Shown here: in pieces, positions 1-14,690 of the stretch
Position numbering within the stretch: position 1 is the stretch's first letter
Layout: every line of letters starts with the position of its first letter
NCBI GenBank assembly: GCA_965219455.1
Contig: OZ244744.1
Span: 2,720,001 to 2,784,000 of the forward strand
From: Candidatus Latescibacterota bacterium
GTDB taxonomy: Bacteria > Latescibacterota > UBA2968 > GCA-2709665
Length of the DNA stretch: 64,000 nucleotides
Direction of reading: 5' to 3'
The notes under the pieces: model-generated
Told to the model about the DNA's origin: nothing
Database searches by the model: none
The model's input: only the letters and a program-made list of their open reading frames with translations
Made by a program: the position numbers and the translations under genes

Positions 1-221
1 TGGGTATTCCGGAACCAGACCACCAAGCTCTGCGCAATGAGTTCCGGGACCGCTTTGTCGGGTTAGCTCTGGAAGCATTGAGGAGGAAGAGAATTTCGCG
101 TGCCGAACTTATCGATTTAGTAGGCATGTTGGACCTGGATGCCTGCGAAGTGGACCAGGCTGTTTCCGACCTGCAACTCGACGACGACGGTAGTACCGAC
201 GATTACGCACGTTGGACATAG
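1..221 (+). CDS. 3' end of probable XRE-HTH / ImmA-IrrE metallopeptidase fusion (truncated by window edge)
   Basis: Frame 3 is open from base 3 to TAG 219-221: GIPEPDHQALRNEFRDRFVGLALEALRRKRISRAELIDLVGML...; the RF.GLALEALRR..ISR.EL pattern resembles C-termini of ImmA/IrrE-family proteins; HEXXH not visible. Confidence 0.5.
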   Translation, partial: GIPEPDHQALRNEFRDRFVGLALEALRRKRISRAELIDLVGMLDLDACEVDQAVSDLQLDDDGSTDDYARWT

Positions 222-349
222 TGGATTATCGTCCAGACATCAAACTGAAATCTAACGTGCGAGCGAGACGCGATTTTCAGCTGGGTATATTGTCAATAAG
301 CGCACCTAAAACGGACATATCAAACACGAATCTTGTAGGAGATCTTGAA

Positions 350-1489
350 ATGCATACAATGACCTTTTTCCCGTTGGGAAACGCCGATTGCTGCCGGATT
401 GAACTGTCGTGTGACCGCATTATCCTTATTGATTTCGCGGCAACCAAAGACGAAAATGACGACTATGACCTTAGGTGTAACCTTCCGGAACTTCTCAAGG
501 ACGGCTTGAAGAAGAAGAATCGTGATTATTTCGATGTGGTAGCGTTCAGCCATCTGGATAAAGATCACTTCAAGGGGGCCTCCGACTTCTTCTACCTTGA
601 ACATGCGAGGAAGTACCAAGTCGGAGAACGTATAAAGATGAACGTAATGTGGGTACCTGCTGCGTTTATCACGGAGGTGGGTCCAGACGACGACGAAGCG
701 CGCGTCTTGCAGAGGGAGGCCCGACACAGATTCCGTCAGAGTAAGGGGATCCGCGTCTTTTCCCGGCCCGAACGGTTGAAGAAGTGGTGCGAAAAAAACG
801 ACATCAAGCTTGAAGACCGGCTTCACTTGATAACCGATGCGGGAAAGACCGCGCCGGAGTTTTCCCTGAGAAAACATCAGATCGAGTTTTTCGCTCACTC
901 TCCATTTGCGATCCGTCAGAACGAAAACACTGTCGAGGACCGCAACGAGGACTCGCTTGTGCTGCATGCAACTTTCCGTGTCGCAGGCGTACATACCAAA
1001 GCGCTGATGCTGGCTGATTCCACCCATGAAGTGCTTTCACAGATCGTAGACATCACCGAGTCCAAGGGTAACGAAAAATACCTTGAGTGGGATATCGTGA
1101 AGATTCCCCACCACTGCAGCTATCTTTCCATAGGATCCGAAAAGGGGACAAACAAAACCACGCCCGTTTCTCAGGTGGCGCGGCTATACGAAAAAGAGGG
1201 ACAGCATGGGGCGATCGCTGTGTCAACAAGCAAGCCAATTCCCCACGCAGGTAGCGACGACGACAAGGACTCGCAGCCACCCCACCGACAGGCCGCGAAT
1301 TATTACAAGGACGTCACGCGTGCCCTCAATGGCCAATTCGTCGTAACGATGGAACATCCATCGAGTAACTCTCCTAAGCCGTTGGTGATTGAAATCGGAC
1401 AAAGCAAAGCGACACTGAAAAAGAGTGTAGCGAGCACGGGAATAATCGCTACATCAGGTCGTGCAACGAGGGCAGGTTGGCAACGATGA
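350..1489 (+). CDS. MBL-fold metallo-hydrolase (ComEC/Rec2-like) with flexible C-terminal tail; first gene of ubiquitin-like operon
   Basis: ATG 350 after AGGAG (337-341); motifs FFPLGNADC, IDF, SHLDKDH, NEDS, ADS, KIPHHCS; ends ...TSGRATRAGWQR. Confidence 0.85.
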   Translation: MHTMTFFPLGNADCCRIELSCDRIILIDFAATKDENDDYDLRCNLPELLKDGLKKKNRDYFDVVAFSHLDKDHFKGASDFFYLEHARKYQVGERIKMNVMWVPAAFITEVGPDDDEARVLQREARHRFRQSKGIRVFSRPERLKKWCEKNDIKLEDRLHLITDAGKTAPEFSLRKHQIEFFAHSPFAIRQNENTVEDRNEDSLVLHATFRVAGVHTKALMLADSTHEVLSQIVDITESKGNEKYLEWDIVKIPHHCSYLSIGSEKGTNKTTPVSQVARLYEKEGQHGAIAVSTSKPIPHAGSDDDKDSQPPHRQAANYYKDVTRALNGQFVVTMEHPSSNSPKPLVIEIGQSKATLKKSVASTGIIATSGRATRAGWQR

Positions 1490-3729
1490 GTTATTTCGAT
1501 GTCTCAGGGGACCAGGTACGGCCAGACGCCCTTGAGATCCCAAAGGCCGAAGATCTTGCGCTCAGTCTGTCGGCTGAGCGCATTGATTTCGCCCGGTTCG
1601 TCGAATGTCGCCGGCAGGATGAAATTGAGGTCGTGGTGTTCGACGTCGATGTCGAAATCGCACAAGTGCAGCGTCATCCGATCAAGGCAAGAGAACGTAT
1701 TTCCGCGGCATTTACTCGAAATGACGAAAACGTACCTGTCGTCCACGCCCTACGGAAGGACTTCCCGCGAGTGCCGCATCTCAACCTGCATCGGCAAGAG
1801 TACCCACGCAACCTCTGTATATATGCTGAACCATATGAGGAGATTAAACGCCGCTGGACATCACCGAGATTCGTACATGAAATCCGGCAATGGCTCGCGT
1901 TAACCAGCAAGGGGAAACTCCACCAGGACGACCAACCCCTTGAACCCCTTCTTGTGGATTTCCACGGGCACATTGTCCTTCCTTCTACCCAACAATTGGA
2001 GGAGCACCTACCAACCCCGCTAGTCGTAGCGCCGGTGAAATCGGACTATAGTAAAGGCCTTTTTCTGATCGCACTAACAGGTGAACCGCAGGAAGGACCG
2101 CCGTCGCTACTTGCTAGTGTACATCGTTGCGAACCTCAGACACATGGGGTTATTCATCAAATTCCGTCGACACTTGCGGACCTTGCTGCCATCACGAAAG
2201 ACGCTAAGTTCGACCTCATTTCTGACCTTCAGCAACGACTGGAGACTTGGCGTGACCAAGGCAGGCCGGTACTCGACTCCTGTCTTCTCCTCGTTCTTTT
2301 ATTTCCCAAAAAACGGGATGAAACAGACGTGATCGAAACAGTCGATAGTTGGGCGTTTTTCCTGTTGGACACTGAAGGAGACAAGGTTGGTGAGGGACTG
2401 GAAATTCGACGACTCGGCACCGAGATCGGCCTTTGGGATCTTCAGGACAATCACGTTGGTTTTCTCATGCAACCCGACACATCGAAAAACGGTCGAAATG
2501 TCGGAGTCGCAGTGCTGAATGTGGTTCGTCACTTCGATCGCTCAATGGCAGCAAGGCTAAATGGTGAGAACGAGGTGGGGGATGTTCGTGTTGTTGCAAT
2601 CGGGATGGGCGCACTGGGTTCACATGTCGCAATCAATCTTGCGAGAACAGGGTTTGGAACTTGGACACTGATCGATCACGACATACTATTGCCGCATAAT
2701 TTGGCGCGGCATGCCCTCGACGGTAGTTTTGTGGGCTGGAACAAGGCAGATGGCGTTGCACGCTTAGCGAATACGATAGTTTTCCGTTCCGATATGTTCA
2801 GCTCACTTCCAGTAAACGTACTTTCACCTGGACGGCAAACTCAAGAATTATCCAATTCGCTGGCTGAGGCCAATGTGATACTGGACATGTCGGCATCTGT
2901 TGGAGTTTCACGGATGCTTGCGCACGAATGCAATGGCACGGCCCGCAGGATCTCGTTGTTCCTTTCCCCGTCTGGGCAGGATCTCGTTCTACTCGCTGAA
3001 GATAAGCAACGAAACAGCACCCTGGATTCTCTTGAAATGCAGTACTACAGGGCCATCCTAAACGACCCTAGCTTGACCGGGCATATGATTAGGCCACCTA
3101 GCCGGTATCGCTATGCCCAATCCTGTCGCGATATCACAAGCCAACTGCCACAGCAAATGGTAGTGAGCCATGCGAGCACGGGAGGACGAGCGGTTCGTGA
3201 CGCTGTTCGGTGTAATAAAGCACAAATAACGATCTGGCGGACAAACGAAAACGGTGTCGCAAAACGCGTCACAGTTTCCGCCGCTCCAGTTGTGCGGAAA
3301 ACTACGGACAACTGGGCAATTATCACTGACAGGGAATTGATTGAAACCCTGGCGAGTTTGCGTAAATCTAAACTTCCAAATGAGACTGGAGGCGTTCTCC
3401 TGGGTTCTTTCGATATGGAGAGAAGAATCGTCTACATCGTCGATGTGTTGCCTTCACCACCCGATAGCGAAGAGTGGCCCACATTGTATATCCGCGGATG
3501 TGAGGGTCTTCGGAAGAAAATCACAGAAATTGAAAAGAAAGTGGACGGGATGATTGAGTACGTCGGAGAATGGCATTCTCATCCAGATGGCGCTGGCACG
3601 TCTCCCAGCGAGGATGATGGAAACGTACTCGCGTGGTTGCGGAAATTGAGACAAGCAGACGGTTACCCTGCCACGATGGCAATTGTCGCAGAATCAGGCA
3701 ACGTGGGATTTTATGTAGAGCAAATATAA
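1486..3729 (+). CDS. Prokaryotic E2 + ThiF/E1 + JAB (JAMM) triple fusion
   Basis: ATGA overlap with upstream stop; E2-like FPRVPHLN...RNLCIY; E1 nucleotide loop IGMGALGS and IDHDILLPHNLARH, candidate catalytic Cys in QSCRD; JAB motifs ETGGVLLG and GEWHSHP...PSEDD. Confidence 0.92.
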   Translation: MSYFDVSGDQVRPDALEIPKAEDLALSLSAERIDFARFVECRRQDEIEVVVFDVDVEIAQVQRHPIKARERISAAFTRNDENVPVVHALRKDFPRVPHLNLHRQEYPRNLCIYAEPYEEIKRRWTSPRFVHEIRQWLALTSKGKLHQDDQPLEPLLVDFHGHIVLPSTQQLEEHLPTPLVVAPVKSDYSKGLFLIALTGEPQEGPPSLLASVHRCEPQTHGVIHQIPSTLADLAAITKDAKFDLISDLQQRLETWRDQGRPVLDSCLLLVLLFPKKRDETDVIETVDSWAFFLLDTEGDKVGEGLEIRRLGTEIGLWDLQDNHVGFLMQPDTSKNGRNVGVAVLNVVRHFDRSMAARLNGENEVGDVRVVAIGMGALGSHVAINLARTGFGTWTLIDHDILLPHNLARHALDGSFVGWNKADGVARLANTIVFRSDMFSSLPVNVLSPGRQTQELSNSLAEANVILDMSASVGVSRMLAHECNGTARRISLFLSPSGQDLVLLAEDKQRNSTLDSLEMQYYRAILNDPSLTGHMIRPPSRYRYAQSCRDITSQLPQQMVVSHASTGGRAVRDAVRCNKAQITIWRTNENGVAKRVTVSAAPVVRKTTDNWAIITDRELIETLASLRKSKLPNETGGVLLGSFDMERRIVYIVDVLPSPPDSEEWPTLYIRGCEGLRKKITEIEKKVDGMIEYVGEWHSHPDGAGTSPSEDDGNVLAWLRKLRQADGYPATMAIVAESGNVGFYVEQI

Positions 3730-3757
3730 AGAAACCCTTCAAGACAAGGACAACAGA

Positions 3758-4459
3758 ATGAAAAACTGGTTTCCCTTCACCGATTATGACTTCTATGCCT
3801 ACTTGTCATCGGGTATGATTGTCCTGTTCGCCCTCGACTACGGCATCAACGACGGCGCCGTAATGTTTAGGAATAGTTGGCCTTTTGTTCAGGTCGTTTT
3901 CTTAATAGCAACGGCGTACATCGTTGGGCACATAATCGCCGGATTCGCGTCGGTTCTCCTCGAACAATGGTTGGGTCGCAGATTCTTGCGTTCTCCTGTT
4001 TCTGTGATGATGGATATGGGTGCCTCCCGATTTCGTGAGAGGGTCATTAGGTGTTTCTTCGCTGTGCGGTATTACGAGCCGCAATCTGAACATATCCGAT
4101 CAAAAATTCTGCAGAATGTAGCCGAAAGGTTAGGAAAGGAACCTGAGAGGATCGACAACCCCGAGGAAGTGTTTCAAGTCGCGTTTCCCGTAGCGCGAGC
4201 AGTTCCGGACGCCGCCGCACGTTTAGATGAATTTCGTAGGATGTACGGATTCTCAAGGAATGTCGCATTGTCGGGAGTGGTGGGGGCAGGCGCTTTGGTT
4301 TACAAGGCTGCGACGTCTAATGAGGTTACGCTATATTTGTGGGCGGCAGTTGTCGCCATTCTCTCAATCTGCATGTTTGGCCGCTTCGTGAAATTCTATG
4401 CCGCCTTTGGTTCTGAGGTATTGCGAACATATGCTTCAAAAGCCGAGGAGAAGAGCTAA
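3758..4459 (+). CDS. Membrane protein with about four TM segments, putative effector
   Basis: Two hydrophobic helices near the N-terminus, a soluble middle and two near the C-terminus; stop overlaps next start (TAATG). Confidence 0.75.
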   Translation: MKNWFPFTDYDFYAYLSSGMIVLFALDYGINDGAVMFRNSWPFVQVVFLIATAYIVGHIIAGFASVLLEQWLGRRFLRSPVSVMMDMGASRFRERVIRCFFAVRYYEPQSEHIRSKILQNVAERLGKEPERIDNPEEVFQVAFPVARAVPDAAARLDEFRRMYGFSRNVALSGVVGAGALVYKAATSNEVTLYLWAAVVAILSICMFGRFVKFYAAFGSEVLRTYASKAEEKS

Positions 4460-5289
4460 TGAAGGTTGAAATCTTCGACGTTGAACATGGTGGTTGTGCG
4501 TTGATAACGGCCGACTCAGGCGCACGTATGCTTATCGATTGTGGTTCGAACTCATCAACCGGTTGGAGACCATCTCTTCATCTGCCGAGAAATGGGGTAG
4601 AAAACGTCGAAATGTTCGTGGTGACGAATTATGACGATGACCATGTGAACGACTTGCCAAACCTGCGGCGAGTTTCTGGTGGCCGCAGAACGGTAAATCT
4701 CAAGGCGCTTCTTAGGAACAGGACAATCTCGCCAGCGGCGCTCGTACGAATGAAAACGGATGGAGGTATGGGTCCTGGCATTCGGGAGCTCTTGGCGATG
4801 TTCAAGGAATATACAGGAGGGCCTCTTAAGGCTGACTGGGGGTCGCTGGAATACATTGTATTCTATAATTCCTATCCCGGTGACTTTAAGGACACGAACA
4901 ACCTCAGTCTCGTTATCTTTCTTCATTGCCACAATATGCATCTGGTGTTTCCGGGAGATTTGGAAAAGGCAGGATGGGAGAAGCTACTTGGAAACCCGGA
5001 ATTCGTTAAGGAACTAAAGACCGTGAATATCTTTGTTGCATCACACCATGGTCGCGAGAGTGGATGTTGTGAAGGAGTGTTTGAAATTCTTGGTGTAAAA
5101 CCATACGTTGTGATTTTTTCCGACGCAGGAATGCAATACGAAAGCCAGCGTACGGCGGACTGGTATCGTTCTCGAACCTACGGAATGAACTACAATGGGA
5201 AGAAGCGGCACGTTTTCACGACACGCCGTGACGGGAAAATCACTATCCAGGCGACACCGCGCCAAACGACAATTAGTACTGCTCGTTGA
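4459..5289 (+). CDS. ComEC/Rec2-like MBL-fold hydrolase with atypical metal motif
   Basis: FDVEHGGC, IDCG, TNYDDDH (replaces HxHxDH), NNLS, FPGDLE, SHHGR, TTRRDG. Confidence 0.85.
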   Translation: MKVEIFDVEHGGCALITADSGARMLIDCGSNSSTGWRPSLHLPRNGVENVEMFVVTNYDDDHVNDLPNLRRVSGGRRTVNLKALLRNRTISPAALVRMKTDGGMGPGIRELLAMFKEYTGGPLKADWGSLEYIVFYNSYPGDFKDTNNLSLVIFLHCHNMHLVFPGDLEKAGWEKLLGNPEFVKELKTVNIFVASHHGRESGCCEGVFEILGVKPYVVIFSDAGMQYESQRTADWYRSRTYGMNYNGKKRHVFTTRRDGKITIQATPRQTTISTAR

Positions 5290-5474
5290 CCTGTCACACT
5301 GTGTGAATCAAACTTAAGAAAATCCCTGCCAATAAAGGTCTTTCACAGCCCGCCCAACGCTCCTCTCCAATGGTCCTTGCATATCTACGCGGAATCGGCC
5401 GGATTCGTGGTACCCTCGGGATTTCCCTTTATTTTTCACCGAACGGTTGATAGCAGGCTTGGTTCACGATCGCA

Positions 5475-6884
5475 TCAAACGGCCTCCCGCACGTCGATCT
5501 TTCCTGTCACCGCCGCGGATATGAGGGCTTGTCGGAGTTCCTTCAGGCGGTCGATAGCTTCTCGGACCTTCTCGACAAGAGCATCGATTTTGGCCGTCTC
5601 ACGGTCAAGGAAAGCGGCTATGGCGCGTTGTTCGGGAAGTGGTGGAAGCGCAAATACCCCCACACGAATAGAATCGCCAGTAAGCCCAAAACGTGTGATA
5701 CCGTTAGCTGCAATATGATACTGATCTCGCGGTCCGATTGCGGAAAATAATCTTCCAATGAACCCGCCGTAAGAATGAGCGTCAGGCTTGATGTGAGCCA
5801 AATGGTAACCGCACAAAACGCCAATAAGGTCTTCAGAGACTACCGATGGAACAGCAATGTCTGCCCAGGTCTCAGAATCCTTTGTTATTAAAACGTCCCC
5901 TGCCCGAAGGGAAAAACGACGCACCTGCTCCGACGTCGCAGTCGCAGGCATAAAATCAACGCGTTTGTCTATTAGTTCGTTGTAATACACGTCGACGTAA
6001 TTGCAAAGTCGGATATTATCTTCACGTTCCTTAGACTTCTTGTCCACATTGCTGAGTTGGACAGTGGCAAAGAATTTCAGTCGCTTAACCTCCCAATGCG
6101 CCGGAATCTCGCCGAGCCACTCGATACCCGAGTCCTGCATAGGCACGTCGGTATCGAGGCCTGCCTGCGCCGCAGCGTCGGCAGGCAGGCTCCGCGTGAC
6201 GGTGTGGCTGATGAGCGCGGCGCGCTTCTCCTGCAGCAACTCGATCAGCCGCTCCTTTTTCGCGACGAGGGCGTCGATCCTGGCCGTCTCGCGGTCAAGG
6301 AAAGCGGCAATGGCGCATTGTTCGGGGAGAGAAGGAACGGAGATTCTGAGGCTAGCGTAGCGTTCTGCACTCACATTTTGGATCGTTGCTTGAATGAAAG
6401 TGCTTTGAAGCCAGTCAGTGTAGCCCTGAGATTGCGTAAAGTATTCAACAAAGTTTGACAAGGCTTGAATATTGTCAAGACGCGCTCGAATCAGATACCC
6501 AGCATATGCTGCCTTGCCCCAACTGGGGTGGTACCGAAAAGTCTTTCCTACGGTTGCCCCGCTACGCGCGAATAAAATGTCGCCAGCGACAAGAAGATAG
6601 GGTTTTGCGATGTTCTCGGGAAGCGACCTGAAACTATCGTCCCTCAATGTTCCGTCTTCTCGAATGTCCGTGATTCGAATATAGCGCGGAAGATTGTTTT
6701 CAGTGTGTTCAGCGGGCTCGTTGGCACCATACTTCAAGGGTTCAGCCAGGAGATGTTTAAGGCGCTTTACCTCCCAATGCGCCGGAATTCGCCCAAGCCA
6801 CTCGACGCCGGAGTCCTTGTAGTCCGGGTACGGACTAATTCCATCATTAACGAAGTTCTGAACGTCAGACTGCCGGTGATTCAC
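5475..6884 (-). CDS. hsdS: Type I restriction-modification specificity subunit
   Basis: Duplicated conserved regions DSG(V/I)EWLG.IPAHWEVKRLK and PEQ.AIAAFLDRETA.IDALV, C-terminal ALISAAVTGKIDVR; GTG 6884 after GGAGG. Confidence 0.93.
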   Translation of the reverse strand: MNHRQSDVQNFVNDGISPYPDYKDSGVEWLGRIPAHWEVKRLKHLLAEPLKYGANEPAEHTENNLPRYIRITDIREDGTLRDDSFRSLPENIAKPYLLVAGDILFARSGATVGKTFRYHPSWGKAAYAGYLIRARLDNIQALSNFVEYFTQSQGYTDWLQSTFIQATIQNVSAERYASLRISVPSLPEQCAIAAFLDRETARIDALVAKKERLIELLQEKRAALISHTVTRSLPADAAAQAGLDTDVPMQDSGIEWLGEIPAHWEVKRLKFFATVQLSNVDKKSKEREDNIRLCNYVDVYYNELIDKRVDFMPATATSEQVRRFSLRAGDVLITKDSETWADIAVPSVVSEDLIGVLCGYHLAHIKPDAHSYGGFIGRLFSAIGPRDQYHIAANGITRFGLTGDSIRVGVFALPPLPEQRAIAAFLDRETAKIDALVEKVREAIDRLKELRQALISAAVTGKIDVREAV

Positions 6885-7004
6885 ATAGCCTCCGTGTACC
6901 TGGCTAAAACCTCTAACATCGTCTTGGTGCCCAAACGCCCGCTGCCAGATCATCGACCATCGTTTGCCCGTTCCACCGCGTCACAAAAGACCCTGAAAAA
7001 CCGT

Positions 7005-7300
7005 TCAATCCACCTCGTCTCGCAGAATCTTTCGAATTTGATCGACAGGCAGGAATTTCTCCTCGCACGATTGGAAAAGATAAAGTGCTGGAGCTTCGTC
7101 CAGGTTGCGGAGGAGCGCAGCCGCCCTTTTTGGCCATTCCTCTTTATTGGTATCGCCAATCAACGCCCGGAACACCAGGTCTGTTGTCTTAAGCGTTCTG
7201 GAATCGACAGGAATATCTTCGATCCAAACAATGGAAGCGGCGTTTTCCCAGATCTTGTTAATTCTGACGGACCGAGCGACGTATGTGACTGAAGATCTGC
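7005..7300 (-). pseudogene. Start-less protein-like reading frame (gene remnant)
   Basis: ...INKIWENAASIVWIEDIPVDSRTLKTTDLVFRALIGDTNKEEWPKRAAALLRNLDEAPALYLFQSCEEKFLPVDQIRKILRDEVD* with TGA at 7007-7005 and an in-frame stop just upstream. Confidence 0.35.
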
Positions 7301-7400
7301 GCCCTTATCGCCGATATACGTACGTTAGATTCTTACAGTAAGGCTTCTACGCAAGATGCGTACATGTTTAATCATGCTGCTTGCATACGGTAAGGTGTTG

Positions 7401-7493
7401 AAATCCCCCCACCGCATCAGCCGTCGCCGGCCCTTCGACAAGCTCAGGGGACGGGCTCGGCTTCTGCGACTCCCCCTCAAGGGGGGAGTGATT
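7401..7493. repeat. Composite REP-like palindromic element
   Basis: CTTCGACAAGCTCAG at 7433-7447 (related copies at 45428 and 45460) and hairpin ACTCCCCCTCAAGGGGGGAGT at 7469-7489. Confidence 0.55.
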
Positions 7494-7654
7494 GAACCTT
7501 CAAACGGGCTCGCCCGATAATTGCCACCTGTTTGGTTGCGGCTGAGCATGGCGAAGCCGCGCTTGGCCTATAGATCAAACAAGCCATTTGTCTCGTCGCG
7601 TTCGAATGCAGAAAGGTGGAGTTGCCGGTTTCGAGTTGAGCGACCCGCCCGGTG

Positions 7655-7996
7655 CTATCCGTCGAATTCGTACAAGAGGTTGTCACCGGACACGCCCGCG
7701 ATTCGAAGGTCGACCTTGCCCGGACCGGGTCCGTATAACTGCTGATAGCGCGTCCTGACCAGGGCGAGGTCGAAGACATGGGACTCGGTCAGCCATGCCT
7801 CGCAGAGATCGCCGTTCGCATTATGGGCGAGCACGGCCGGAAGCTGCACCGGATCCGACTCTCTGAACGATTTCGAGATTACCAGCGTGAAGTCGTGTCT
7901 CCGGCAGCCGGTCGCGGCGAGCACGGCGAGCAGTAGCGCGACCGAGGCCGCGCCCCTCTCGGCGGAAACCAGGGAACCGGCGGATCCGGATGTCAT
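7655..7996 (-). CDS. Small putative lipoprotein, possibly internally deleted
   Basis: ATG 7996 after GGAGGG; hydrophobic stretch ending LAATGC followed directly by RRHDFTLVISKSFRESDPVQL...HNANGDLCEA. Confidence 0.5.
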   Translation of the reverse strand: MTSGSAGSLVSAERGAASVALLLAVLAATGCRRHDFTLVISKSFRESDPVQLPAVLAHNANGDLCEAWLTESHVFDLALVRTRYQQLYGPGPGKVDLRIAGVSGDNLLYEFDG

Positions 7997-8179
7997 TGAT
8001 CCCTCCAGCGTTGGATTTCGAGTTGTCCCGCAAGACCGCAAAAGCAATATAGCACCGATTCGGCGCTTCAAGGCCGCCGATCGGGCCAGCCGGGCAGCTT
8101 TGTCCCGGTTGGCTGGCGCTTCACTTGAAGATATCGTATTCTTGCTGTGGTTCGTCAGGTAGAGAGACCAGAAAGACAA

Positions 8180-8215
8180 CAAATGTCGGCACTTAATAGT
8201 AACTGCCGACATTTG
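8180..8215. promoter_or_regulatory. Palindrome, second copy of the putative AbiEi operator
   Basis: CAAATGTCGGCACTTA-ATAG-TAACTGCCGACATTTG; 8181-8214 matches 10034-10067 at 29 of 34 positions. Confidence 0.55.
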
Positions 8216-8492
8216 ATGCTGATTGCCGATCCAATATATAATGAAGTTCGACATTTCAACATCGTTAAATTTATCGCCCGATCATCGTCTGTATTTTCTA
8301 CGAGTAAGCTGGCGCTTGGCCGTCCACGTACGCCCCACATTCCAAATCGAACGAACGCCTGCGGCGGACAATGATCAGGTAGGTACTTTGGACATTCGCG
8401 AATTTAGACAGATGAACCGTACCAAGGGGCCAACCCGCGGAGAGCCCAGTTCCAGCCGTGCACGGAGCGTACTCGGCTTTCATCAGAAAGGC

Positions 8493-9416
8493 CTATTCAT
8501 GTCGCCAGGGTCCACCTGCCTTCCAACTCCCCGTGAAACCGGCTCCGCGCGCCACAGCATCCCATGGTTCTCTGAAAAACGATATAAGACGGTCGCCCAA
8601 AGAACCGAAATCTGCGGGCGCACCCGCAAGCGCGTTCCGTTCCAGATAGGTACGCCACTGACCGGCACGCTCTCCATCAGCATAAAAGCGGGCCGTCAGA
8701 GCAACGGGTAGAGCCTGTGAGAAAGTTGTACGTCGTCGTTCGAAGGTCGCGCGCAAAGCTCTCAAGAGTTGATTGCCCTCGAAAGCAAAGTGCTGTATAA
8801 GGGCATAAAGATCGTAAAAGTCCTTGTTTCGACTGTTCCGTTCGCCCAACACAACCATCGCATGAAGCTTTTCCGCAACGACGGCCTCCCGCGGGTAGAC
8901 TCGGATATCCGGACTGGGATTGTCGAGCAAGGTCTTGTAAAGTGTGTCGGTCGGTGGCGGTTCGACGGCATTTCCAAAGCCAATATCGATCTGCATACGT
9001 ATACGTGCGTTATCCAGCGTCGCACTGAAACTTACGCGGAGACTATCATACATGTCCTGATCGCGAATGGTTTCGATCGCGATGTTGCTGATATCGAAGA
9101 CAAGTCCATCGTCGTCCACCGGAGTCTGACAGATTTCCCGGACCGTGGACCTTACTTCGTTCAATAACGAACTGCCGTAACCGGTAAAGTCTAGATCGCG
9201 GGTCGGGCGGTAGACTGCTTCAACCCAATGGACAAGAAGCATAGCGCCTTTCAAGATATAGCGATTGCGATACGGCGACTCTCCCAGCCGGTAGAGGAAT
9301 CGTTCTGCCGCGTATCGCTCCAGCAGGAACTGGAAATCCTCACCGGTTTGACGGCTCCGGTTCAACAATCTTGCGCGCACTGATGCGCCGACATTACGGC
9401 GCCCTCCGCGAGTCAT
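8493..9416 (-). CDS. abiEii: AbiEii-family nucleotidyltransferase toxin (type IV TA / abortive infection)
   Basis: SVRARLLN, ERFLYRL, LKGA, RPTRDLDF, QIDIGFG, EKLHAM, NSRNKDFYDL; ATGA-coupled to abiEi. Confidence 0.92.
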   Translation of the reverse strand: MTRGGRRNVGASVRARLLNRSRQTGEDFQFLLERYAAERFLYRLGESPYRNRYILKGAMLLVHWVEAVYRPTRDLDFTGYGSSLLNEVRSTVREICQTPVDDDGLVFDISNIAIETIRDQDMYDSLRVSFSATLDNARIRMQIDIGFGNAVEPPPTDTLYKTLLDNPSPDIRVYPREAVVAEKLHAMVVLGERNSRNKDFYDLYALIQHFAFEGNQLLRALRATFERRRTTFSQALPVALTARFYADGERAGQWRTYLERNALAGAPADFGSLGDRLISFFREPWDAVARGAGFTGSWKAGGPWRHE

Positions 9417-10006
9417 GTTTGAAGCGCCTCCAGGTAACTCCGCATAACCGTCTGCGCGCGGCAAACTTCTGCCGCTCGCATAATCTCGTCCACGGTCGCA
9501 GCACGCGATCGCAGAACATCATGCAGCGCCTCAAGCGCTATATCGAGTCCAAGCTTGTTGCGATACCGAAAACAATCCACGACGGTTCGGGCTGGCGAAG
9601 TGATGCGAAACGGTACCCCCAGCGCCGAATGGTGGGTTACCCCATAGGTTAGCATCGCACCTGAGAAACGGACCATGCGTACCCGAGCGGGCGGGCGAGC
9701 GGGTTTGCGAGCCTTGCGGTCCAGAGCGATCCAGATCTCGTGAGGCGACTGCGTGCCGATTTCGTGGAAACGAAGCGCCGTCAGCAGGCACATGACGGCA
9801 TTCGGTATGGCCGCAGCTACCATCGCGATCGTCTCTACCTCTGTCGCTTCGACCTCGGAGAGTCGATAAAGGCCATTTCCCAGACTATCGACGAGTCCTT
9901 CGGCGACGAGACCCATGAGTCGCCGATGTGAGATCCCGAACGGTGCGAGGTCTTTAGGTCGAAAATAGACACCCAGGCCCGCTTCTTGAAGTTGAGCAAT
10001 ATCCAT
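9413..10006 (-). CDS. abiEi: AbiEi-family antitoxin / transcriptional regulator
   Basis: N-terminal wHTH-like GNGLYRL; CLLTALRFHEIGTQSPHEIWIA; TSPARTVVDCFRYRNKLGLDIALEAL; alternative start 10018. Confidence 0.9.
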   Translation of the reverse strand: MDIAQLQEAGLGVYFRPKDLAPFGISHRRLMGLVAEGLVDSLGNGLYRLSEVEATEVETIAMVAAAIPNAVMCLLTALRFHEIGTQSPHEIWIALDRKARKPARPPARVRMVRFSGAMLTYGVTHHSALGVPFRITSPARTVVDCFRYRNKLGLDIALEALHDVLRSRAATVDEIMRAAEVCRAQTVMRSYLEALQT

Positions 10007-10033
10007 TGGGTGAACCATTTGCGAAATGATACT

Positions 10034-10075
10034 AAATGTCGTCACTTTATCGTAACTGCCGATAATTGTTGTCAA
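10034..10075 (-). promoter_or_regulatory. abiE promoter with overlapping inverted-repeat operator
   Basis: TTGACA at 10075-10070 and TACGAT at 10054-10049 (15-nt spacer, short); imperfect palindrome 10034-10067. Confidence 0.55.
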
Positions 10076-10103
10076 TCTGCTGGTCAAATAAGGGCGCGGG
10101 ATG

Positions 10104-10391
10104 TTATCGAAAACCTCTGAGCCGGGCCAGGAGACTCTTTGCGTGCCGGCAAGCGTCTTCGACGAGACCCGGGTCGATTTGCGCCAGGAGGATTGGAACG
10201 GCACCTCCCTTCGAATCGTCGAGTGCCGTAGTAAAACGGTTGAATGTCTGTTGACGCGTGCCTCCCCGCACCACTCTCGGCATTCGACCGCCGAGTCCAG
10301 CCTTTGCAAGGAAAGCCTTCCAAGCCTCGCGGAACTGCGCACCAAGGCGGCGATTGTCGCCCCCGCCCTCAATATATAGTACGGCTGTCAC
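10104..10391 (-). pseudogene. DUF4276-family protein with large in-frame internal deletion
   Basis: Typical N-terminus (LYIEGGG...FREAW..FL.KAG) joined at ILL|AQIDP to a typical C-terminus; only 95 aa and central acidic motifs missing. Confidence 0.65.
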
Positions 10392-11605
10392 CAGCGATTT
10401 CCTCCGATTTGTCCGGAACTCCAGAGATTACCCAGTGTGTAATCCTTCAGCCATTTGGCGAGATCGGCTTTGTCGAGCCGACCCATCTCGGTCTGTCCAT
10501 CGTGCTTTTCGCAGACTATCACGCTCTCGGGTGTGTCGGTTAGCGCATCCACCAACGCGTCGGAATGAGTCGTTACGACCAATTGACTGCGTTCCGACGC
10601 TGAGACAAGCAAGTCGGCCACAGTGGGTAAAAGGTCCGGATGCAAGCCTAGTTCCGGTTCCTCGATCACCACCAGGGGAGGCGGTTCAGGATGGAGCAGA
10701 ATGGCCAACAGACACAGATAACGCGATGTGCCGTCTGAAATGCGTGTGGCCGGAATCTGGCGGTTGTCCGCTTCTACCAGAAATAGTGCCATGTTACCAC
10801 CGTCTACTGAAAAAGTGATGTCGACGATGCCGTCAAAGAGTTTCTGCAGAGCTGTGACGAGTTGCCCTTTGTTTTCGCCACGGAAGTGCGACAACACAAG
10901 CGCGAGGTTTGTGCTGTCCTCATCCAGAAAATCGGCGCGGTCGTGGGCGCTCTGGTTCCTGCGGCACGCTGCCGAGGGACCGAGAAACCAATCGCGGTAA
11001 AGACGAAGTTGCCCGTATTGTTCCTTCAGATGCCACAGAATCGGATACTCAGGACTTGCAAAGTAAACGAGAGAATGTTCCGGACGATAGTAGCTTTGAA
11101 ACCCTATACTCCGGGTTCCTTTTACAATGGCTGGTGGCGGTCCCAAAGGGGCGGACGAATAATGCGGCGTCGACCTGTCAGCTGACGAATCGACATCTGG
11201 CTCTTCCTTTCTGGGTGGTCGATAGTAGGAAAGCGGGGGAAGTAATTCGACATAGGCGCCCAAAGGCTCGACCTGCTCGTCGATCACTTCGGGACGATCG
11301 TTACTGTGGCCAAGTGTCAACGAATGGCGCGCGATGCGGTCCGCACCATATTCGACAAACACTTCCAATGCGAATGAGTCCAGCGCATCTCGCCCGTTCC
11401 ACAACCACGACTCAACGCCCCCCATACGCGAGATCGGATCTGTTATGCAACTCGGCGCCGCCCTAAGCAAGGCAATTGCTTCCAGAAAGTTCGACTTTCC
11501 TGAGCCGTTCGGGCCAATGAGGACGTTCAGCGGTTCCATGGGCAAGTCAACTCCATCGGGTCCGAACGACAGGAGGCCGGAAATTTTCAATTTATGAATC
11601 AACAT
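10388..11605 (-). CDS. ABC-like AAA ATPase (AAA_21/AAA_15 type)
   Basis: Walker A GPNGSGKS, signature ISDGT, Walker B IEEPELGLHP, TTHS H-loop. Confidence 0.9.
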   Translation of the reverse strand: MLIHKLKISGLLSFGPDGVDLPMEPLNVLIGPNGSGKSNFLEAIALLRAAPSCITDPISRMGGVESWLWNGRDALDSFALEVFVEYGADRIARHSLTLGHSNDRPEVIDEQVEPLGAYVELLPPLSYYRPPRKEEPDVDSSADRSTPHYSSAPLGPPPAIVKGTRSIGFQSYYRPEHSLVYFASPEYPILWHLKEQYGQLRLYRDWFLGPSAACRRNQSAHDRADFLDEDSTNLALVLSHFRGENKGQLVTALQKLFDGIVDITFSVDGGNMALFLVEADNRQIPATRISDGTSRYLCLLAILLHPEPPPLVVIEEPELGLHPDLLPTVADLLVSASERSQLVVTTHSDALVDALTDTPESVIVCEKHDGQTEMGRLDKADLAKWLKDYTLGNLWSSGQIGGNRW

Positions 11606-11753
11606 ATCGGCTCCTCAAGCATGCGTAGCGGTTATTTTGCCGTGCAAACACACCCGTCAGTTTTTCAGGCCGCTTATGACGTGTTCCTAGTAAGCAGTCC
11701 TTCCAGGCTGAAGTCAACTCTATCATCAATTGATGAGCCTTCTGCCGTTCTCG

Positions 11754-12068
11754 TCATACGCTAAGTTCGATGTCGCGTGGCGCAATCGCTTCCAGTTCCT
11801 CTGCCTCAGACCGGGTGGCGTGATACAGATCCCAACGTAGCTGCAGATTCAGCCAAAACGCGGCCGAAACGTTGAAATATCTCCCCAGGCGCAGGGCCGT
11901 GCTAGGAGTAATACCTCGTCGACCGTTTACCAGTTCGTTGACCCATTGACAGGGCACATGAATGGCGGTAGCCAATTCCCGTTGTGTTAAATTCAACGAA
12001 TTCAGAAACTCCTCAAGCAACATCACGCCCGGATGAGTGGGGACACGATTGGTTGGAATACGTACCAT
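11754..12068 (-). CDS. higA: HigA-family addiction module antitoxin
   Basis: THPG.ML.EEFL, TQRELA, NELVNGRRGITPSTALRL, FWLNLQ..WDL. Confidence 0.9.
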   Translation of the reverse strand: MVRIPTNRVPTHPGVMLLEEFLNSLNLTQRELATAIHVPCQWVNELVNGRRGITPSTALRLGRYFNVSAAFWLNLQLRWDLYHATRSEAEELEAIAPRDIELSV

Positions 12069-12090
12069 GATCCAAACCTTTGGTTAATCG

Positions 12091-12150
12091 TTAGTGATAG
12101 TCGAAGATCTCCACATCAGTGGGACCGGCAATCCGGCCACGCAAAGCAGT
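12091..12150 (-). pseudogene. higB: C-terminal remnant of HigB toxin
   Basis: CFAWPD(frameshift)AGPTDVEIFDYH* directly upstream of higA, matching the typical HigB ending CF.W..AGP.DVEI.DYH. Confidence 0.7.
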
Positions 12151-12172
12151 TGCCATAGATACTTTTGGTGGC

Positions 12173-14326
12173 TCAGACCGTTGCGCCGGACATTTCCTTC
12201 AACATCTCCATTATGTCCTTTTCGATATGCTGAATATCGGCCTCGATCTCCGGAAGTGGCCGCGGCGGCTTATACTGGTAGAAATAACGGTTGAAGTTGA
12301 TCTCGTAGCCCACAAAACCGACCTTTCCGTCCCGATGATCGCGCTTCGATGTATCTATCCACGCTTCCGGAACATGAGGTTTGACCTCCCGCTCGAAAAA
12401 GGCGCGAACGCTGGCTGGGACGCCGTCGCCGTCCACGGGGTCCGCCCCATCGGCGAGCGGTACGCGCTCGGTGTCACGCAACTCCGGGTCGGGTTCGGGC
12501 GCGCCGTTTTTTCCCCGGCAGATCGTGGCTGTTTCATCGCGCTCGCCAAGAGCCGTGAGGATTGCCTTCTGCACCGGCGCCGCGAGTTTAAGACCGGCTC
12601 TCCGCGCCGCTTCCGCGAGTTCTGCCAGAAATACCTCGCGGTCTTTGTGAAGGGTGTCGGGCAGCTTCTCGAGCGTGGTCAAAATTTCCTGCTGCAGAGC
12701 GCGGCCATCGGCCTTTTCCCTGAGGCCGGCGTCGCCCCGTTTCTTCGATTTGGCCAGATTCTGAAATCCTGTCTGTTCGCTCAGCCGTGCGATGCGTTCC
12801 GCGCTTGCCTGAAAATTGAGTCGCAGCGGTCGTTCAACCGTAATTCTCCGATATCCGAATCGCTTCGTAGAGAAGACACGGCTGACGACTTTGTCTTCTT
12901 CCTCGCCGTCTTCAGAGACCTTCCGCGTCTCGCCATCGTGAAAGCCCCGCAGGAGACCCAGCACGTCGTCTGCTTTCCCAGGTGGTATCTCCCGCCGCTT
13001 GTCGCCCAGGCTCCGGCGCATCGGCTTCCAGAAGGTCGTGGCGTCGATAAGCTGCACCTTGCCCTTGCGTTCCGGAGCCTTGCGGTTGCTCAAAACCCAC
13101 ACATAGGTTGCAATGCCGGTGTTGTAGAAAAGCTGCTCGGGCAGCGCAATCAACGCCTCCAGCAGGTCGTTTTCCATAATATATCGGCGAATTTCACTTT
13201 CGCCGCTGCCCGCGTCACCCGTAAACAAGGGCGAACCGTTCATGATGATCGCAATGCGTGCGCCTCCCTGGTCCGGCGCCCGGGCGTGAGCGAGCATGTG
13301 CAGCAGGAACAGTGTTTGACCGTCGCTGATGCGCGGGAGCCCAGGGCCGAAGCGCCCGGCCGCGCCCCGTTCATGTTCGGACTCGACCGAGGTCTTGTCG
13401 CGTTTCCAGTCCTTTCCATAGGGCGGATTCGCGATCAGGTAATCAAAATGGTGGGCGGCATGCCGATCGTTTGAGAGCGTGCTGCCAAAAACGACCTTGT
13501 CCGCGTCGCGGCCCGTCGGATCCTTCATATACATGTCAGACTTTGAGACCGCCCACGTCTCCGGGTTCACTTCCTGGCCGAAGAGATGGATCTCCGCCTC
13601 CGGTTTGATAGCGGGGCGAGGGATTTCGCCGTTGCTTCGCATGCCCCTCGTAATGTGTTCCTTGGCGATGGTCAACATGCCGCCGGAGCCGCAGCACGGG
13701 TCGTAAACACTGCGCACAACGCCGGGTCGGGCGATGCGGTCTTTCTCACCGGCGAGCATGAGGTCCACCATCAGGTGGACCACGTCCCTCGGTGTGAAGT
13801 GCTCCCCGGGATTCTCATCCAGGGCTTCGTTGAATCTGCGGATCAACTCTTCAAAGACCGTCCCCATGGTCGCGTTGTCGATCCGATCCGGATGCAGGTC
13901 GACGTTCTTGAACCGCTCCAGCACCTGGAACAGCAGCCCCGCTTCATCGAGCTTGCTGATCGTGTTGTCGAGGTCGAATCGTTCCAACACCTCGCGCATG
14001 TTATCGCTGAAACCGGCGATGTAGTTTCTCAGGTTGGCGGCAAGTTGGGGCGCATCGGCCAGCAACGTGTCGAAGTCATAGCGTGAAGTGTTGTAGAATG
14101 CGAAGCCGGATGTTTCGCGCAGTTGCCCCTTCAGATCTTCAAGGCCGCGACCTCTCAACTCCGCCTGGCGTTTGAGCACTTGTTGCTTGGTCGGCGCAAG
14201 AACGCAGTCAAGGCGGCGCAGCACGGTCAGAGGAAGAATGACGTCCTGGTATTTGCCGCGCTTGAAGCTGTCGCGGATGAGATCCGCAACGCCCCAGATG
14301 AAGCTGACGATCTCACTGTGATTCAT
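12173..14326 (-). CDS. hsdM: Type I RM N6-adenine methyltransferase subunit
   Basis: FIWGVADLIR, GEHFTPRDVV, YDPCCGSGGML, NPPY, GSPLFTGDAGSGESEIR, GYEINFNRYFY. Confidence 0.95.
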   Translation of the reverse strand: MNHSEIVSFIWGVADLIRDSFKRGKYQDVILPLTVLRRLDCVLAPTKQQVLKRQAELRGRGLEDLKGQLRETSGFAFYNTSRYDFDTLLADAPQLAANLRNYIAGFSDNMREVLERFDLDNTISKLDEAGLLFQVLERFKNVDLHPDRIDNATMGTVFEELIRRFNEALDENPGEHFTPRDVVHLMVDLMLAGEKDRIARPGVVRSVYDPCCGSGGMLTIAKEHITRGMRSNGEIPRPAIKPEAEIHLFGQEVNPETWAVSKSDMYMKDPTGRDADKVVFGSTLSNDRHAAHHFDYLIANPPYGKDWKRDKTSVESEHERGAAGRFGPGLPRISDGQTLFLLHMLAHARAPDQGGARIAIIMNGSPLFTGDAGSGESEIRRYIMENDLLEALIALPEQLFYNTGIATYVWVLSNRKAPERKGKVQLIDATTFWKPMRRSLGDKRREIPPGKADDVLGLLRGFHDGETRKVSEDGEEEDKVVSRVFSTKRFGYRRITVERPLRLNFQASAERIARLSEQTGFQNLAKSKKRGDAGLREKADGRALQQEILTTLEKLPDTLHKDREVFLAELAEAARRAGLKLAAPVQKAILTALGERDETATICRGKNGAPEPDPELRDTERVPLADGADPVDGDGVPASVRAFFEREVKPHVPEAWIDTSKRDHRDGKVGFVGYEINFNRYFYQYKPPRPLPEIEADIQHIEKDIMEMLKEMSGATV

Positions 14327-14469
14327 CGGTTCGCTCCACGATTTCGATTGGGGAAATAACGACGACCCCTTTACGCGTTTCCCGTTCAGTTCGCTAACAA
14401 TATAACACAAAATGGCAATAAAACAGAGAATGGCCTTTTCGCGTTCTAAACAGTGCCCGGTAGACGCAT

Positions 14470-14498
14470 GTAGGGGCAGGTTTGAAACCTGCCCCGAC
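14470..14498. repeat. GTAG-type REP palindrome
   Basis: GTAGGGGCAGGTTTGAAACCTGCCCCGAC. Confidence 0.75.
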
Positions 14499-14690
14499 TG
14501 GAGAGGCATCGGCAGGCGCGAAGGCCTTGTCTTGTTTTCGCATGTGAAGATAAGGAGGTTTCTTATTAGCGAAAACGGTTTAAATCGATAATAATAAACG
14601 CACGTAGACGAAAAAAGAACTGACTTGCATTATACAAGCCAGTTCAGGGTAGATGGGATAGCTGAAAAGGGGTTTCTGAATCAGCGCCGC

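Follow-up and report, generated by a model that had tools for sequence, protein, structure and literature searches.

6A-MBL is an anti-phage system whose curated definitions comprise two proteins only. It corresponds to operon type 6a in passages of Iyer, Burroughs and Aravind (2006; PMC1779556). In later papers, van den Berg et al. (2024) are credited with naming it and with testing it against phage in Pseudomonas aeruginosa. An MBL-fold gene stands directly upstream of, and overlaps, a gene for an E2-E1-JAB triple fusion; the MBL has a Gly-containing C-terminal tail, and neither a Ubl nor a CD-NTase is present.

Type II CBASS is built along similar lines: it has an enzyme whose C-terminus can be conjugated (here a CD-NTase), the E2-E1 ligase Cap2, the JAB peptidase Cap3 and a variable patatin or membrane-protein gene. 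Bil and Bub have a separate gene for a ubiquitin-like protein. PADLOC-DB v2.0.0 lists PDC-M48, a name in which PDC presumably stands for ‘phage defence candidate’, as a candidate system of two genes; our literature search found no paper on it.

We describe a locus within a window of 64,000 nucleotides from a Candidatus Latescibacterota genome (contig OZ244744.1), which shares the features of 6A-MBL given above and carries two further genes. We consider it fairly probable that this is an anti-phage system of the 6A-MBL kind in which genes 3 and 4 form an exchangeable, membrane-directed cassette that works with the core as an accessory or effector arm.

Layout of the locus

Four plus-strand ORFs lie where an earlier note on this DNA had placed them (Table 1), and the tight coupling that it reported is present in the sequence: genes 1 and 2 share an ATGA overlap (1486-1489), genes 3 and 4 a TAATG overlap (4457-4461). 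AGGAG is found 10 nt 5′ of the MBL1 ATG and AAGGA before the ATG of gene 3. Genes 2 and 3 are separated by 28 nt, with no terminator-like site between them.

The operon contains no ORF for a ubiquitin-like protein, unlike Bil and Bub, and its intergenic gaps of only 128, 28 and 185 nt are too small to hold one. A Pfam search found no CD-NTase among the four genes and the upstream gene, and the sole SMODS match of the genome is ~0.8 Mb from the locus; the absence of both, as first read from the letters, is thus upheld. Lacking a CD-NTase, the locus has no known nucleotide signal, which distinguishes it from type II CBASS.

Table 1. Features of the locus (window positions, except those prefixed L178)
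Feature	Position	Strand	Remarks
HsdR, upstream	L178:5827-9354	-	
HTH + Peptidase_M78 (IrrE/ImmA-type) gene, 3′ end	3..221	+	460 aa; start upstream of the window; full ORF L178:10839-12221
MBL1 (6A-MBL MBL-fold, ComEC-like enzyme)	350..1489	+	379 aa from ATG; NF058524
MBL1 disordered C-terminal tail, putative conjugation end	1430..1486	+	residues 361-379
R374-A375-G376	1469-1477	+	
Extension W-Q-R	1478-1486	+	3 residues
Cap2_3, E2-E1-JAB triple fusion	1486..3729	+	747 aa; NF058523
Cap2_3 E2 domain	~1633-2007	+	C111 codon 1816-1818
Cap2_3 E1 adenylation domain	~2482-3285	+	GxGxxG 2602-2619; C547 codon 3124-3126
Cap2_3 JAB domain	~3295-3690	+	E633 3382-3384; H697/H699 3574-3582; D711 3616-3618
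Cassette differing from closest related locus	3687..5488	.	blastn versus L001
Membrane protein, TM-A family (gene 3)	3758..4459	+	233 aa
MBL2, ComEC-like MBL-fold hydrolase, PDC-M48B type (gene 4)	4459..5289	+	276 aa
HsdS, type I restriction specificity subunit	5475..6953	-	Pfam Methylase_S
HsdM	12173-14509	-	

The core genes

By sequence, genes 1 and 2 are the known, already named 6A-MBL anti-phage system. MBL1 scores 390.8 bits against NF058524 (6A-MBL_enzyme; cut-off 220; model positions 1-344 of 346) and Cap2_3 scores 630.9 bits against NF058523 (6A-MBL_cap2_3; cut-off 320; model positions 2-665 of 665), both about twice the curated NCBIfam equivalog cut-offs. The ‘family 6A’ identity suggested in the earlier note was therefore correct, although the locus is not the distant member that the note thought it might be. 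A high-scoring match had been foreseen there as removing the novelty, and most of it is indeed gone, the core adding only one more lineage that holds 6A-MBL. This host lineage is far from Pseudomonas; further differences from the curated system are the membrane protein and second MBL after the core, the HTH-M78 regulator before it and the three residues past the Gly of the tail.

Cap2_3, the ligase, matches the Pfam families Prok-E2_A (E 9e-23), ThiF (2e-12) and Prok-JAB (1e-9). Residue conservation was taken from 12 homologues of 33-76% identity, with codons verified in the DNA. The E2 Cys, the E1 motifs with their Cys and the JAMM motif, all said earlier to be retained in this protein, are invariant in the 12-sequence alignment: C111 (‘NLCIY’), G373/G375/G378, C547 (‘SCRD’), E633, H697, H699 and D711. 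CBASS Cap2 (7tsq/7to3) is the nearest solved structure for the E1 domain (E ~1e-14), and the JAB domain matches Cap3 models. In contrast to type II CBASS, Cap2 and Cap3 are here fused in one chain, and an MBL-fold hydrolase takes the position of the cyclase.

MBL1 belongs to the ComEC-like metallo-hydrolases, and its disordered tail bears a conserved R-A-G. Its metal motif, H68-x-D70-x-D72-H73 with H254-H255 (codons verified), is invariant or nearly so among 62 sequences. The top PDB structural match of its predicted model (pLDDT 91) is the beta-lactamase-like domain of ComEC (9ic4; E 2e-14), which is also its best match at the sequence level (E 9.5e-7).

The membrane protein and second MBL

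Gene 4 matches the PADLOC model PDLC04674 (PDC-M48B) from end to end (E 7.4e-85; residues 1-272 on model positions 1-266 of 270). Its motif is N57-x-D59-x-D61-H62 with H196-H197. This subfamily typically has Asn where the first His would stand: among 70 sequences N57 is conserved in 90% or more, and D59, D61, H62 and H197 are invariant. The predicted model (pLDDT 92) again has 9ic4 as its top PDB match (TM 0.74). MBL2 has no RAG tail, and the C-termini of its family are not conserved.

Hydropathy of the gene 3 protein indicates two strong hydrophobic stretches (~41-73 and ~187-218) and two less marked ones, with ~100 aa in the middle that are soluble. No match was found in Pfam, NCBIfam or PADLOC, the last, with its PDC-M48A models, giving none even at E up to 10. 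The homologues form 124 clusters, every one ‘hypothetical’, and a profile made without close relatives recovers the protein at E 8e-18. This TM-A protein is a partner of MBL-fold enzymes; in P0241 (452 aa) the TM-A family is fused to an MBL domain in a single protein. Compared by hhalign, the family profile gives 95% probability to a subgroup matching the Csx27 model and 7% to a subgroup matching PDC-M48A. The gene 3 protein is thus a membrane partner analogous to PDC-M48A, from a family that is related to it but distinct. The pair resembles PDC-M48 in that a small membrane-protein gene precedes and overlaps gene 4, as in two loci (L004 and L005) where the PDC-M48A and PDC-M48B models both match; it differs in having no PDC-M48A match and in being attached to a 6A-MBL core.

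The slot downstream of the ligase

Related loci were collected as the 80 best-scoring of at least 519, a sample that leans towards relatives of this locus, and the census drew on 79 non-redundant 6A-MBL loci for which 2 kb or more of downstream sequence was available. At least one of four partner classes lies within 3 kb downstream of the ligase in 62 of these 79, as counted with TM-A, TM-B, patatin and MBL2 profiles that were seeded from these very loci. TM-B is present in 25, a patatin phospholipase in 21, a PDC-M48B-like MBL in 21 and TM-A in 15; PADLOC confirms PDC-M48B in 16 loci, and a membrane protein and an MBL occur together in 15 of the 79. None of the four classes was found in 17, which include one entire 7-row clade. 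It is common for a partner gene to overlap the stop codon of the ligase gene, as the patatin gene does in G. oxydans pGOX1, the founding 2006 example; in 7 of the 79 loci the adjoining partner runs on the opposite strand. The class of the third gene undergoes at least 24 changes over 66 rows of the ligase tree, against a mean of 36.7 and a minimum of 32 after shuffling, and the seven nearest rows in the clade that holds this locus (L001, L016, L017, L009, L025, L018 and L026) all have TM-B.

Alignment by blastn with the closest related locus, L001, gives 82% DNA identity over 321-3686. Similarity is absent from 3687 and is back at 5489, the 3′ end of hsdS. The ~1.8-kb cassette between these points, which comprises the last 14 codons of gene 2, gene 3, MBL2 and the spacer, is replaced in L001 by another membrane protein (TM-B) and another MBL, the swap point falling at the very end of gene 2.

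We favour the reading of genes 3 and 4 as an accessory cassette because the slot is so often filled, because it is swapped relative to a locus of such high identity, and because of the 28-nt spacer and the gene overlaps. The two genes would occupy a variable slot behind the ligase that related loci fill with a patatin, with a membrane protein from either of two related families, or with a membrane protein and an MBL together. The cassette is not obligatory, since 17 cores are without a partner, since the reverse census found a ligase within 6 kb in 15 of 54 eligible MBL2-family loci and none in the other 39 (19 of which have an adjacent membrane protein), and since the pair stands alone in L014 between housekeeping (propionyl-CoA carboxylase) genes. 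The membrane protein and MBL may be able to act alone elsewhere too. The description of all four genes as one operon therefore needs qualification: the overlaps and short spacer stand, while genes 3 and 4 are separable, occurring alone elsewhere and being swapped in the closest relative.

Co-occurrence of 27-28% in both directions (21/79; 15/54) is high for unrelated systems, and the 82%-identical relative refills the slot behind the ligase with the same kind of pair. Overlap of partner genes with the ligase stop codon points the same way, as do the alternative fillings (patatin, membrane proteins), which resemble CBASS effector sets. These observations weigh against two independent systems lying side by side, a reading we regard as possible though doubtful, in which genes 3 and 4 would be a separate PDC-M48-type candidate, co-transcribed or co-located, with no biochemical link to the ligase. 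It gains from the solitary pair in L014, from the MBL2-family loci without a ligase, from the modelling of PDC-M48 by PADLOC as a two-gene candidate of its own and from the missing RAG tail of MBL2. It gains too from the position of some partner genes on the opposite strand, from the setting in a defence island within a type I R-M system and from two-gene forms of 6A-MBL, found on plasmids of Enterobacter and Hymenobacter with a WYL regulator as their sole companion. A passage of Iyer et al. (2006; PMC1779556) describes the operon as ‘usually with two genes’.

Returning to the cassette reading, we tentatively put forward a more specific form of it, in which 6A-MBL has three parts much as type II CBASS does: a RAG-primed MBL for the cyclase, Cap2_3, and interchangeable membrane-directed effectors (patatin, TM-A/TM-B, or membrane protein plus MBL). 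On this view the PDC-M48 pair would count as one such arm, able to run alone as well. The core might reach its effector through a small molecule made by the MBL or by conjugating the membrane partner directly, and in either case the link would add a new step in signalling. A slot that is variable, mostly filled, swapped and CBASS-like suggests that the two curated genes leave out a working component of the system, and that 6A-MBL has a mechanistic relationship to PDC-M48, an unstudied candidate. Were this the case, annotation tools would be under-calling 6A-MBL, and the slot would offer a handle on what a Cap2-type ligase achieves with no nucleotide signal to boost.

The MBL1 tail as a proposed conjugation end

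The motif [RK][AVM]G occurs in the last 14 residues of 72 of 74 MBL1 homologues; the Gly is the final residue in 41 of these, and in 31 it is followed by 1-6 more. In the predicted model of MBL1 the tail has pLDDT <50 at residues 361-373 and 375-379. Sequence and model together indicate that the ‘missing ubiquitin’ is most likely MBL1 itself, by way of its own tail. The conjugated substrate, which the earlier note left unresolved, thus has a likely candidate end in the RAG+WQR tail; passages of PMC11601596 on ‘MBL pathways’ likewise take the MBL as the conjugated enzyme. Trimming would be required, because WQR follows the RAG.

The ligase might instead conjugate some other substrate (a small peptide, a Ubl encoded elsewhere or a phage protein), with MBL1 merely a downstream effector. 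Such a scheme would suit an MBL1 that ends three residues past the Gly rather than at it, and no report of a conjugate for the 6A-MBL family was found in the literature covered; we nevertheless judge it very improbable, given the prevalence of RAG at or near the C-terminus on a disordered tail, the placing of the MBL1 gene just before that of the ligase in all 72 loci where the upstream sequence is long enough, an operon without space for another gene, and the treatment of the MBL as the conjugated enzyme in the source just cited.

With MBL1 as the conjugated protein, the steps can be proposed by analogy with Cap2/Cap3 of type II CBASS and with the literature on ‘MBL pathways’. MBL1 would replace ubiquitin or the cyclase. 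The JAB domain would remove WQR after Gly376, the E1 domain would adenylate Gly376, and the Gly376 thioester would form onto Cys547 and next to E2 Cys111, so that Gly376 may end up joined to a lysine of some target. Conjugation could prime or position the nuclease-like MBL1 against phage DNA, and the JAB domain might also undo the conjugate link.

Neighbourhood and role

A type I R-M locus, marked by HsdS, HsdM and HsdR, surrounds the operon. Within ~12 kb on either side, HsdS, AbiEii, an AAA_21 ATPase, HsdM, Fic and HsdR are all long open frames with clear Pfam matches; the statement that neighbouring defence genes decay does not hold for these six.

ComEC differs from MBL1 and MBL2 in that they are free-standing, without its channel and OB domains, and the membrane part is here a separate small protein. 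A role outside defence, as conjugation-regulated DNA uptake of the ComEC kind or membrane-lipid or phosphodiester housekeeping, is scarcely credible: both MBLs are closest to the ComEC nuclease domain, with phosphorylcholine esterase next, and relatives of MBL2 carry the database name ‘ComEC/Rec2 family competence protein’, but the NCBIfam family name comes from a phage-tested system, the locus sits beside AbiEii and Fic within the R-M locus, and the patchy spread of 6A-MBL across many phyla and on plasmids, with shuffling cassettes, is typical of defence genes.

The gene upstream of the operon matches HTH_31/HTH_19/HTH_3 and Peptidase_M78 (E 3.5e-14) in Pfam. It is likely the regulator of the operon, which it probably controls. 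An HTH-M78 gene is likewise upstream in L001, with 88% aa identity. The nearest locus belongs to a MAG of Candidatus Latescibacterota.

The 6A-MBL core

The four genes lie in one operon, in which MBL1 and the E2-E1-JAB fusion (the ligase) make up the core, and the membrane protein and MBL2 the downstream cassette. The earlier note's description of the four genes was confirmed. All four ORFs were found on the plus strand where it had placed them, the ATGA and TAATG overlaps are both present, and there is neither space for a Ubl gene nor a CD-NTase within the operon. A gap of 28 nt separates genes 2 and 3; it contains a Shine-Dalgarno-like AAGGA and no terminator-like site. Pfam matched Prok-E2_A, ThiF and Prok-JAB in the fusion. 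The catalytic motifs that the note had read in it proved invariant in an alignment of the window protein with 11 homologues (33-76% identity; codons checked): the E2 Cys (C111), the adenylation loop (G373/G375/G378), the E1 Cys (C547) and the JAMM residues (E633, H697, H699 and D711).

The suggested likeness to 6A-MBL was borne out, since both core proteins exceed the cut-offs of NCBIfam equivalog models named for the 'anti-phage 6A-MBL system' (MBL1, 390.8 bits against 220; fusion, 630.9 against 320). The core is thus an already known system in a new lineage. This operon type is traced to Iyer, Burroughs and Aravind 2006 (PMC1779556); a 2025 preprint includes 6A-MBL among known Pseudomonas aeruginosa jumbo-phage defences (10.1101/2025.09.30.679545), and a 2026 review credits it to van den Berg 2024 (PMC13276650). 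Scanning species-representative genomes with a profile revealed at least 519 loci, which belong to many phyla; plasmids also carry full-length copies, and the window's genome has one copy. The note had counted non-conserved gene order in homologous loci as a refutation; within the core the order is conserved, the ligase gene being immediately preceded by MBL1 in all 72 loci with sufficient upstream sequence.

Features of the operon and its surroundings (window positions unless prefixed; L178 is a locus extending upstream of the window)
Feature	Location	Strand	Length	Remark
MBL1	350-1489	+	379 aa	
E2-E1-JAB fusion	1486-3729	+	747 aa	
Membrane protein	3758-4459	+	233 aa	
MBL2	4459-5289	+	276 aa	
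HTH + Peptidase_M78 (IrrE/ImmA) gene	L178:10839-12221, ending at window 221	same as operon	460 aa	directly upstream of MBL1
HsdR fused to AlbA_2/Schlafen domain, with Fic	L178:5827-9354 (HsdR)	-		upstream
HsdS, AbiEii, 319-aa ORF, AAA_21 ATPase, HsdM	5475-14509	-		downstream

The slot behind the ligase gene

The position directly behind the ligase gene was surveyed in the best 80 of the at least 519 profile-scan loci plus the first 13. Four duplicates and loci with a ligase gene cut off by the contig end were excluded and at least 2 kb of downstream sequence was required, leaving 79 loci. The classes sought were patatin, an MBL like PDC-M48B, and two membrane-protein families, TM-A (to which gene 3 belongs) and TM-B. 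PDC-M48 is a two-gene candidate system in PADLOC, with a small membrane protein (A) and an MBL-fold protein (B); a literature search did not return the name. At least one class lies within 3 kb downstream of the ligase in 62 of the 79 loci, in a sample skewed towards relatives of the window and with class profiles seeded from the same loci as were counted.

Gene classes found within 3 kb downstream of the ligase gene
Class	Loci
TM-B membrane protein	25/79
TM-A membrane protein	15/79
Patatin	21/79
PDC-M48B-like MBL	21/79
Membrane protein + MBL	15/79
Patatin + MBL	4/79
None of the four classes	17/79

PADLOC, which is independent of our profiles, recognised PDC-M48B at 16 loci, and at two (L004 and L005) the A component as well; Pfam confirmed patatin in both loci submitted. 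In seven of the 79, core and adjacent partner gene lie on opposite strands. On plasmid pGOX1 of G. oxydans, one of the founding examples of 2006 (PMC1779556), an annotated patatin gene overlaps the ligase stop. A plain two-gene form with a WYL regulator was found on Enterobacter and Hymenobacter plasmids.

Exchange of the cassette

The closest locus, L001, comes from a Candidatus Latescibacterota MAG and shares 82% DNA identity with window 321-3686. The similarity ends 43 nt short of the ligase stop codon and resumes at 5489, inside hsdS; between these breakpoints L001 encodes TM-B and an MBL other than MBL2. In a FastTree phylogeny of 66 ligase proteins, which left out rows lacking a full-length stop-free match or 2 kb of downstream sequence, the window and L001 ligases are sisters, and the seven rows nearest the window in its clade (L001, L016, L017, L009, L025, L018 and L026) all have TM-B. 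The class of the third gene changes at least 24 times on this tree, against a mean of 36.7 and a minimum of 32 when shuffled. At L044 and L045 the ligases are almost alike (branch lengths about 0.06) but the downstream partners differ, being an opposite-strand patatin in one and an MBL with TM-B in the other; the cassette seems to have been exchanged very recently.

The slot has been refilled repeatedly by the same few kinds of gene, and genes 3 and 4 are a PDC-M48-type cassette occupying it. Such refilling fits an exchangeable working part, and a chance neighbourhood explains it less well; on balance we favour functional coupling of genes 3 and 4 with the core. The competing reading, that core and cassette are two independent neighbours, we regard as less likely, though quite possible. 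The gene 3-4 pair is itself autonomous: the same two genes stand alone in locus L014, flanked by propionyl-CoA carboxylase genes and with an MBL2 66% identical to that of the window.

Loci of the MBL2 family were collected by searching with a five-sequence alignment (a single MBL2 query gave one locus). Among the 54 with enough flank, a ligase lies within 6 kb of the MBL2-family gene in 15, and an adjacent membrane protein is the only partner in 19. The other 20 have neither a ligase nor an adjacent membrane protein as sole partner, and many of these are triples of TM-B, a longer MBL of about 335 aa and an MBL2-type MBL. The ligase-free triple recurs in L127, L129, L130, L131, L134, L135, L138, L142, L144 and L161, and may represent a separate PDC-M48-like subtype that has two hydrolases.

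Proteins of the cassette

PADLOC, which the earlier note had proposed running on the four proteins, identified gene 4 as PDC-M48B, matched end to end (E 7e-85). The MBL2 model has a pLDDT of 92. In its metal motif the first His is replaced by Asn; decay was considered and rejected, because 70 relatives show Asn at that position with at least 90% conservation, so that the substitution is a trait of the subfamily.

The membrane protein has no match in Pfam, NCBIfam or PADLOC, none of its 124 homologue clusters is named, and in the ESM Atlas it meets solely unnamed 'hypothetical protein' clusters. A profile built without its close relatives still finds it (E 8e-18). Profile comparison, in which scores of membrane proteins may be inflated, gave a probability of 95% against the subgroup matching the CRISPR-associated Csx27 model, 7% against the PDC-M48A subgroup, and 98% for the whole TM-A family against TM-B. 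TM-A-type proteins adjoin 6A-MBL cores at three related loci (L027:7378-8157, L029:7390-8139 and L042:8214-8909). PADLOC matches these three (E 1e-9 to 1e-13) to its models of Csx27/tm_4, the membrane protein that accompanies type VI-B CRISPR. The profile matches suggest one membrane-protein superfamily common to Cas13b loci and MBL modules.

Structure prediction of the membrane protein with MBL2 gave no answer (score 0.00), which speaks neither for nor against binding. Among longer proteins, one was found to contain the membrane protein: P0241, a 452-aa protein on one contig in which TM-A (57% identical to gene 3 along its full length) continues into a PDC-M48B-like MBL domain. Either the fusion is natural or a stop codon has been lost, and as a single contig it lends weak support to the TM-MBL pairing.

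The MBL1 tail

The structural search that the note had advised placed both MBLs closest to the ComEC nuclease-type beta-lactamase-like domain (PDB 9ic4). The MBL1 model (pLDDT 91) is disordered only at residues 361-379, which include R374-A375-G376 followed by W-Q-R. In 72 of the 74 homologues whose C-terminus is complete, [RK][AVM]G falls inside the final 14 residues, the exceptions being L037 and L042; its Gly is the exact C-terminal end in 41 and is followed by one to six residues in 31. Such a pattern is that of a ubiquitin-like C-terminus, synthesised in some cases as a precursor, and the substrate of the ligase is probably MBL1's own tail. By analogy with Cap2/Cap3, the JAB domain would trim the tail, which would then be adenylated and passed as a thioester from C547 to C111, and MBL1 would finally be ligated to a lysine. 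MBL2 was considered as a further substrate and rejected, its C-terminus being unconserved and lacking RAG.

Genomic surroundings

The whole 6A-MBL cassette is embedded in a type I R-M locus. Decay of the neighbouring defence genes, claimed earlier, was not seen: HsdR, Fic, HsdS, AbiEii, AAA_21 and HsdM are long open frames. The 319-aa ORF downstream has no Pfam match. The HTH-Peptidase_M78 gene is conserved in L001 and likely encodes a damage- or phage-responsive regulator, and it resembles the CapH/CapP regulators of CBASS; other 6A-MBL loci instead have WYL regulators. A CBASS-like system is probably present elsewhere in the genome, since its sole SMODS (CD-NTase) match is some distance from the operon, about 0.8 Mb away (G000:C1:1907612-1907992, in the window's own genome). 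Window 7591-8071 (GC 0.61) is 95-98% identical to L001, against about 70-83% in the flanking homologous DNA. This stretch has no convincing ORF, a search of 6900-8600 gave no Rfam match, and it may represent a mobile fragment or a conserved element without coding function.
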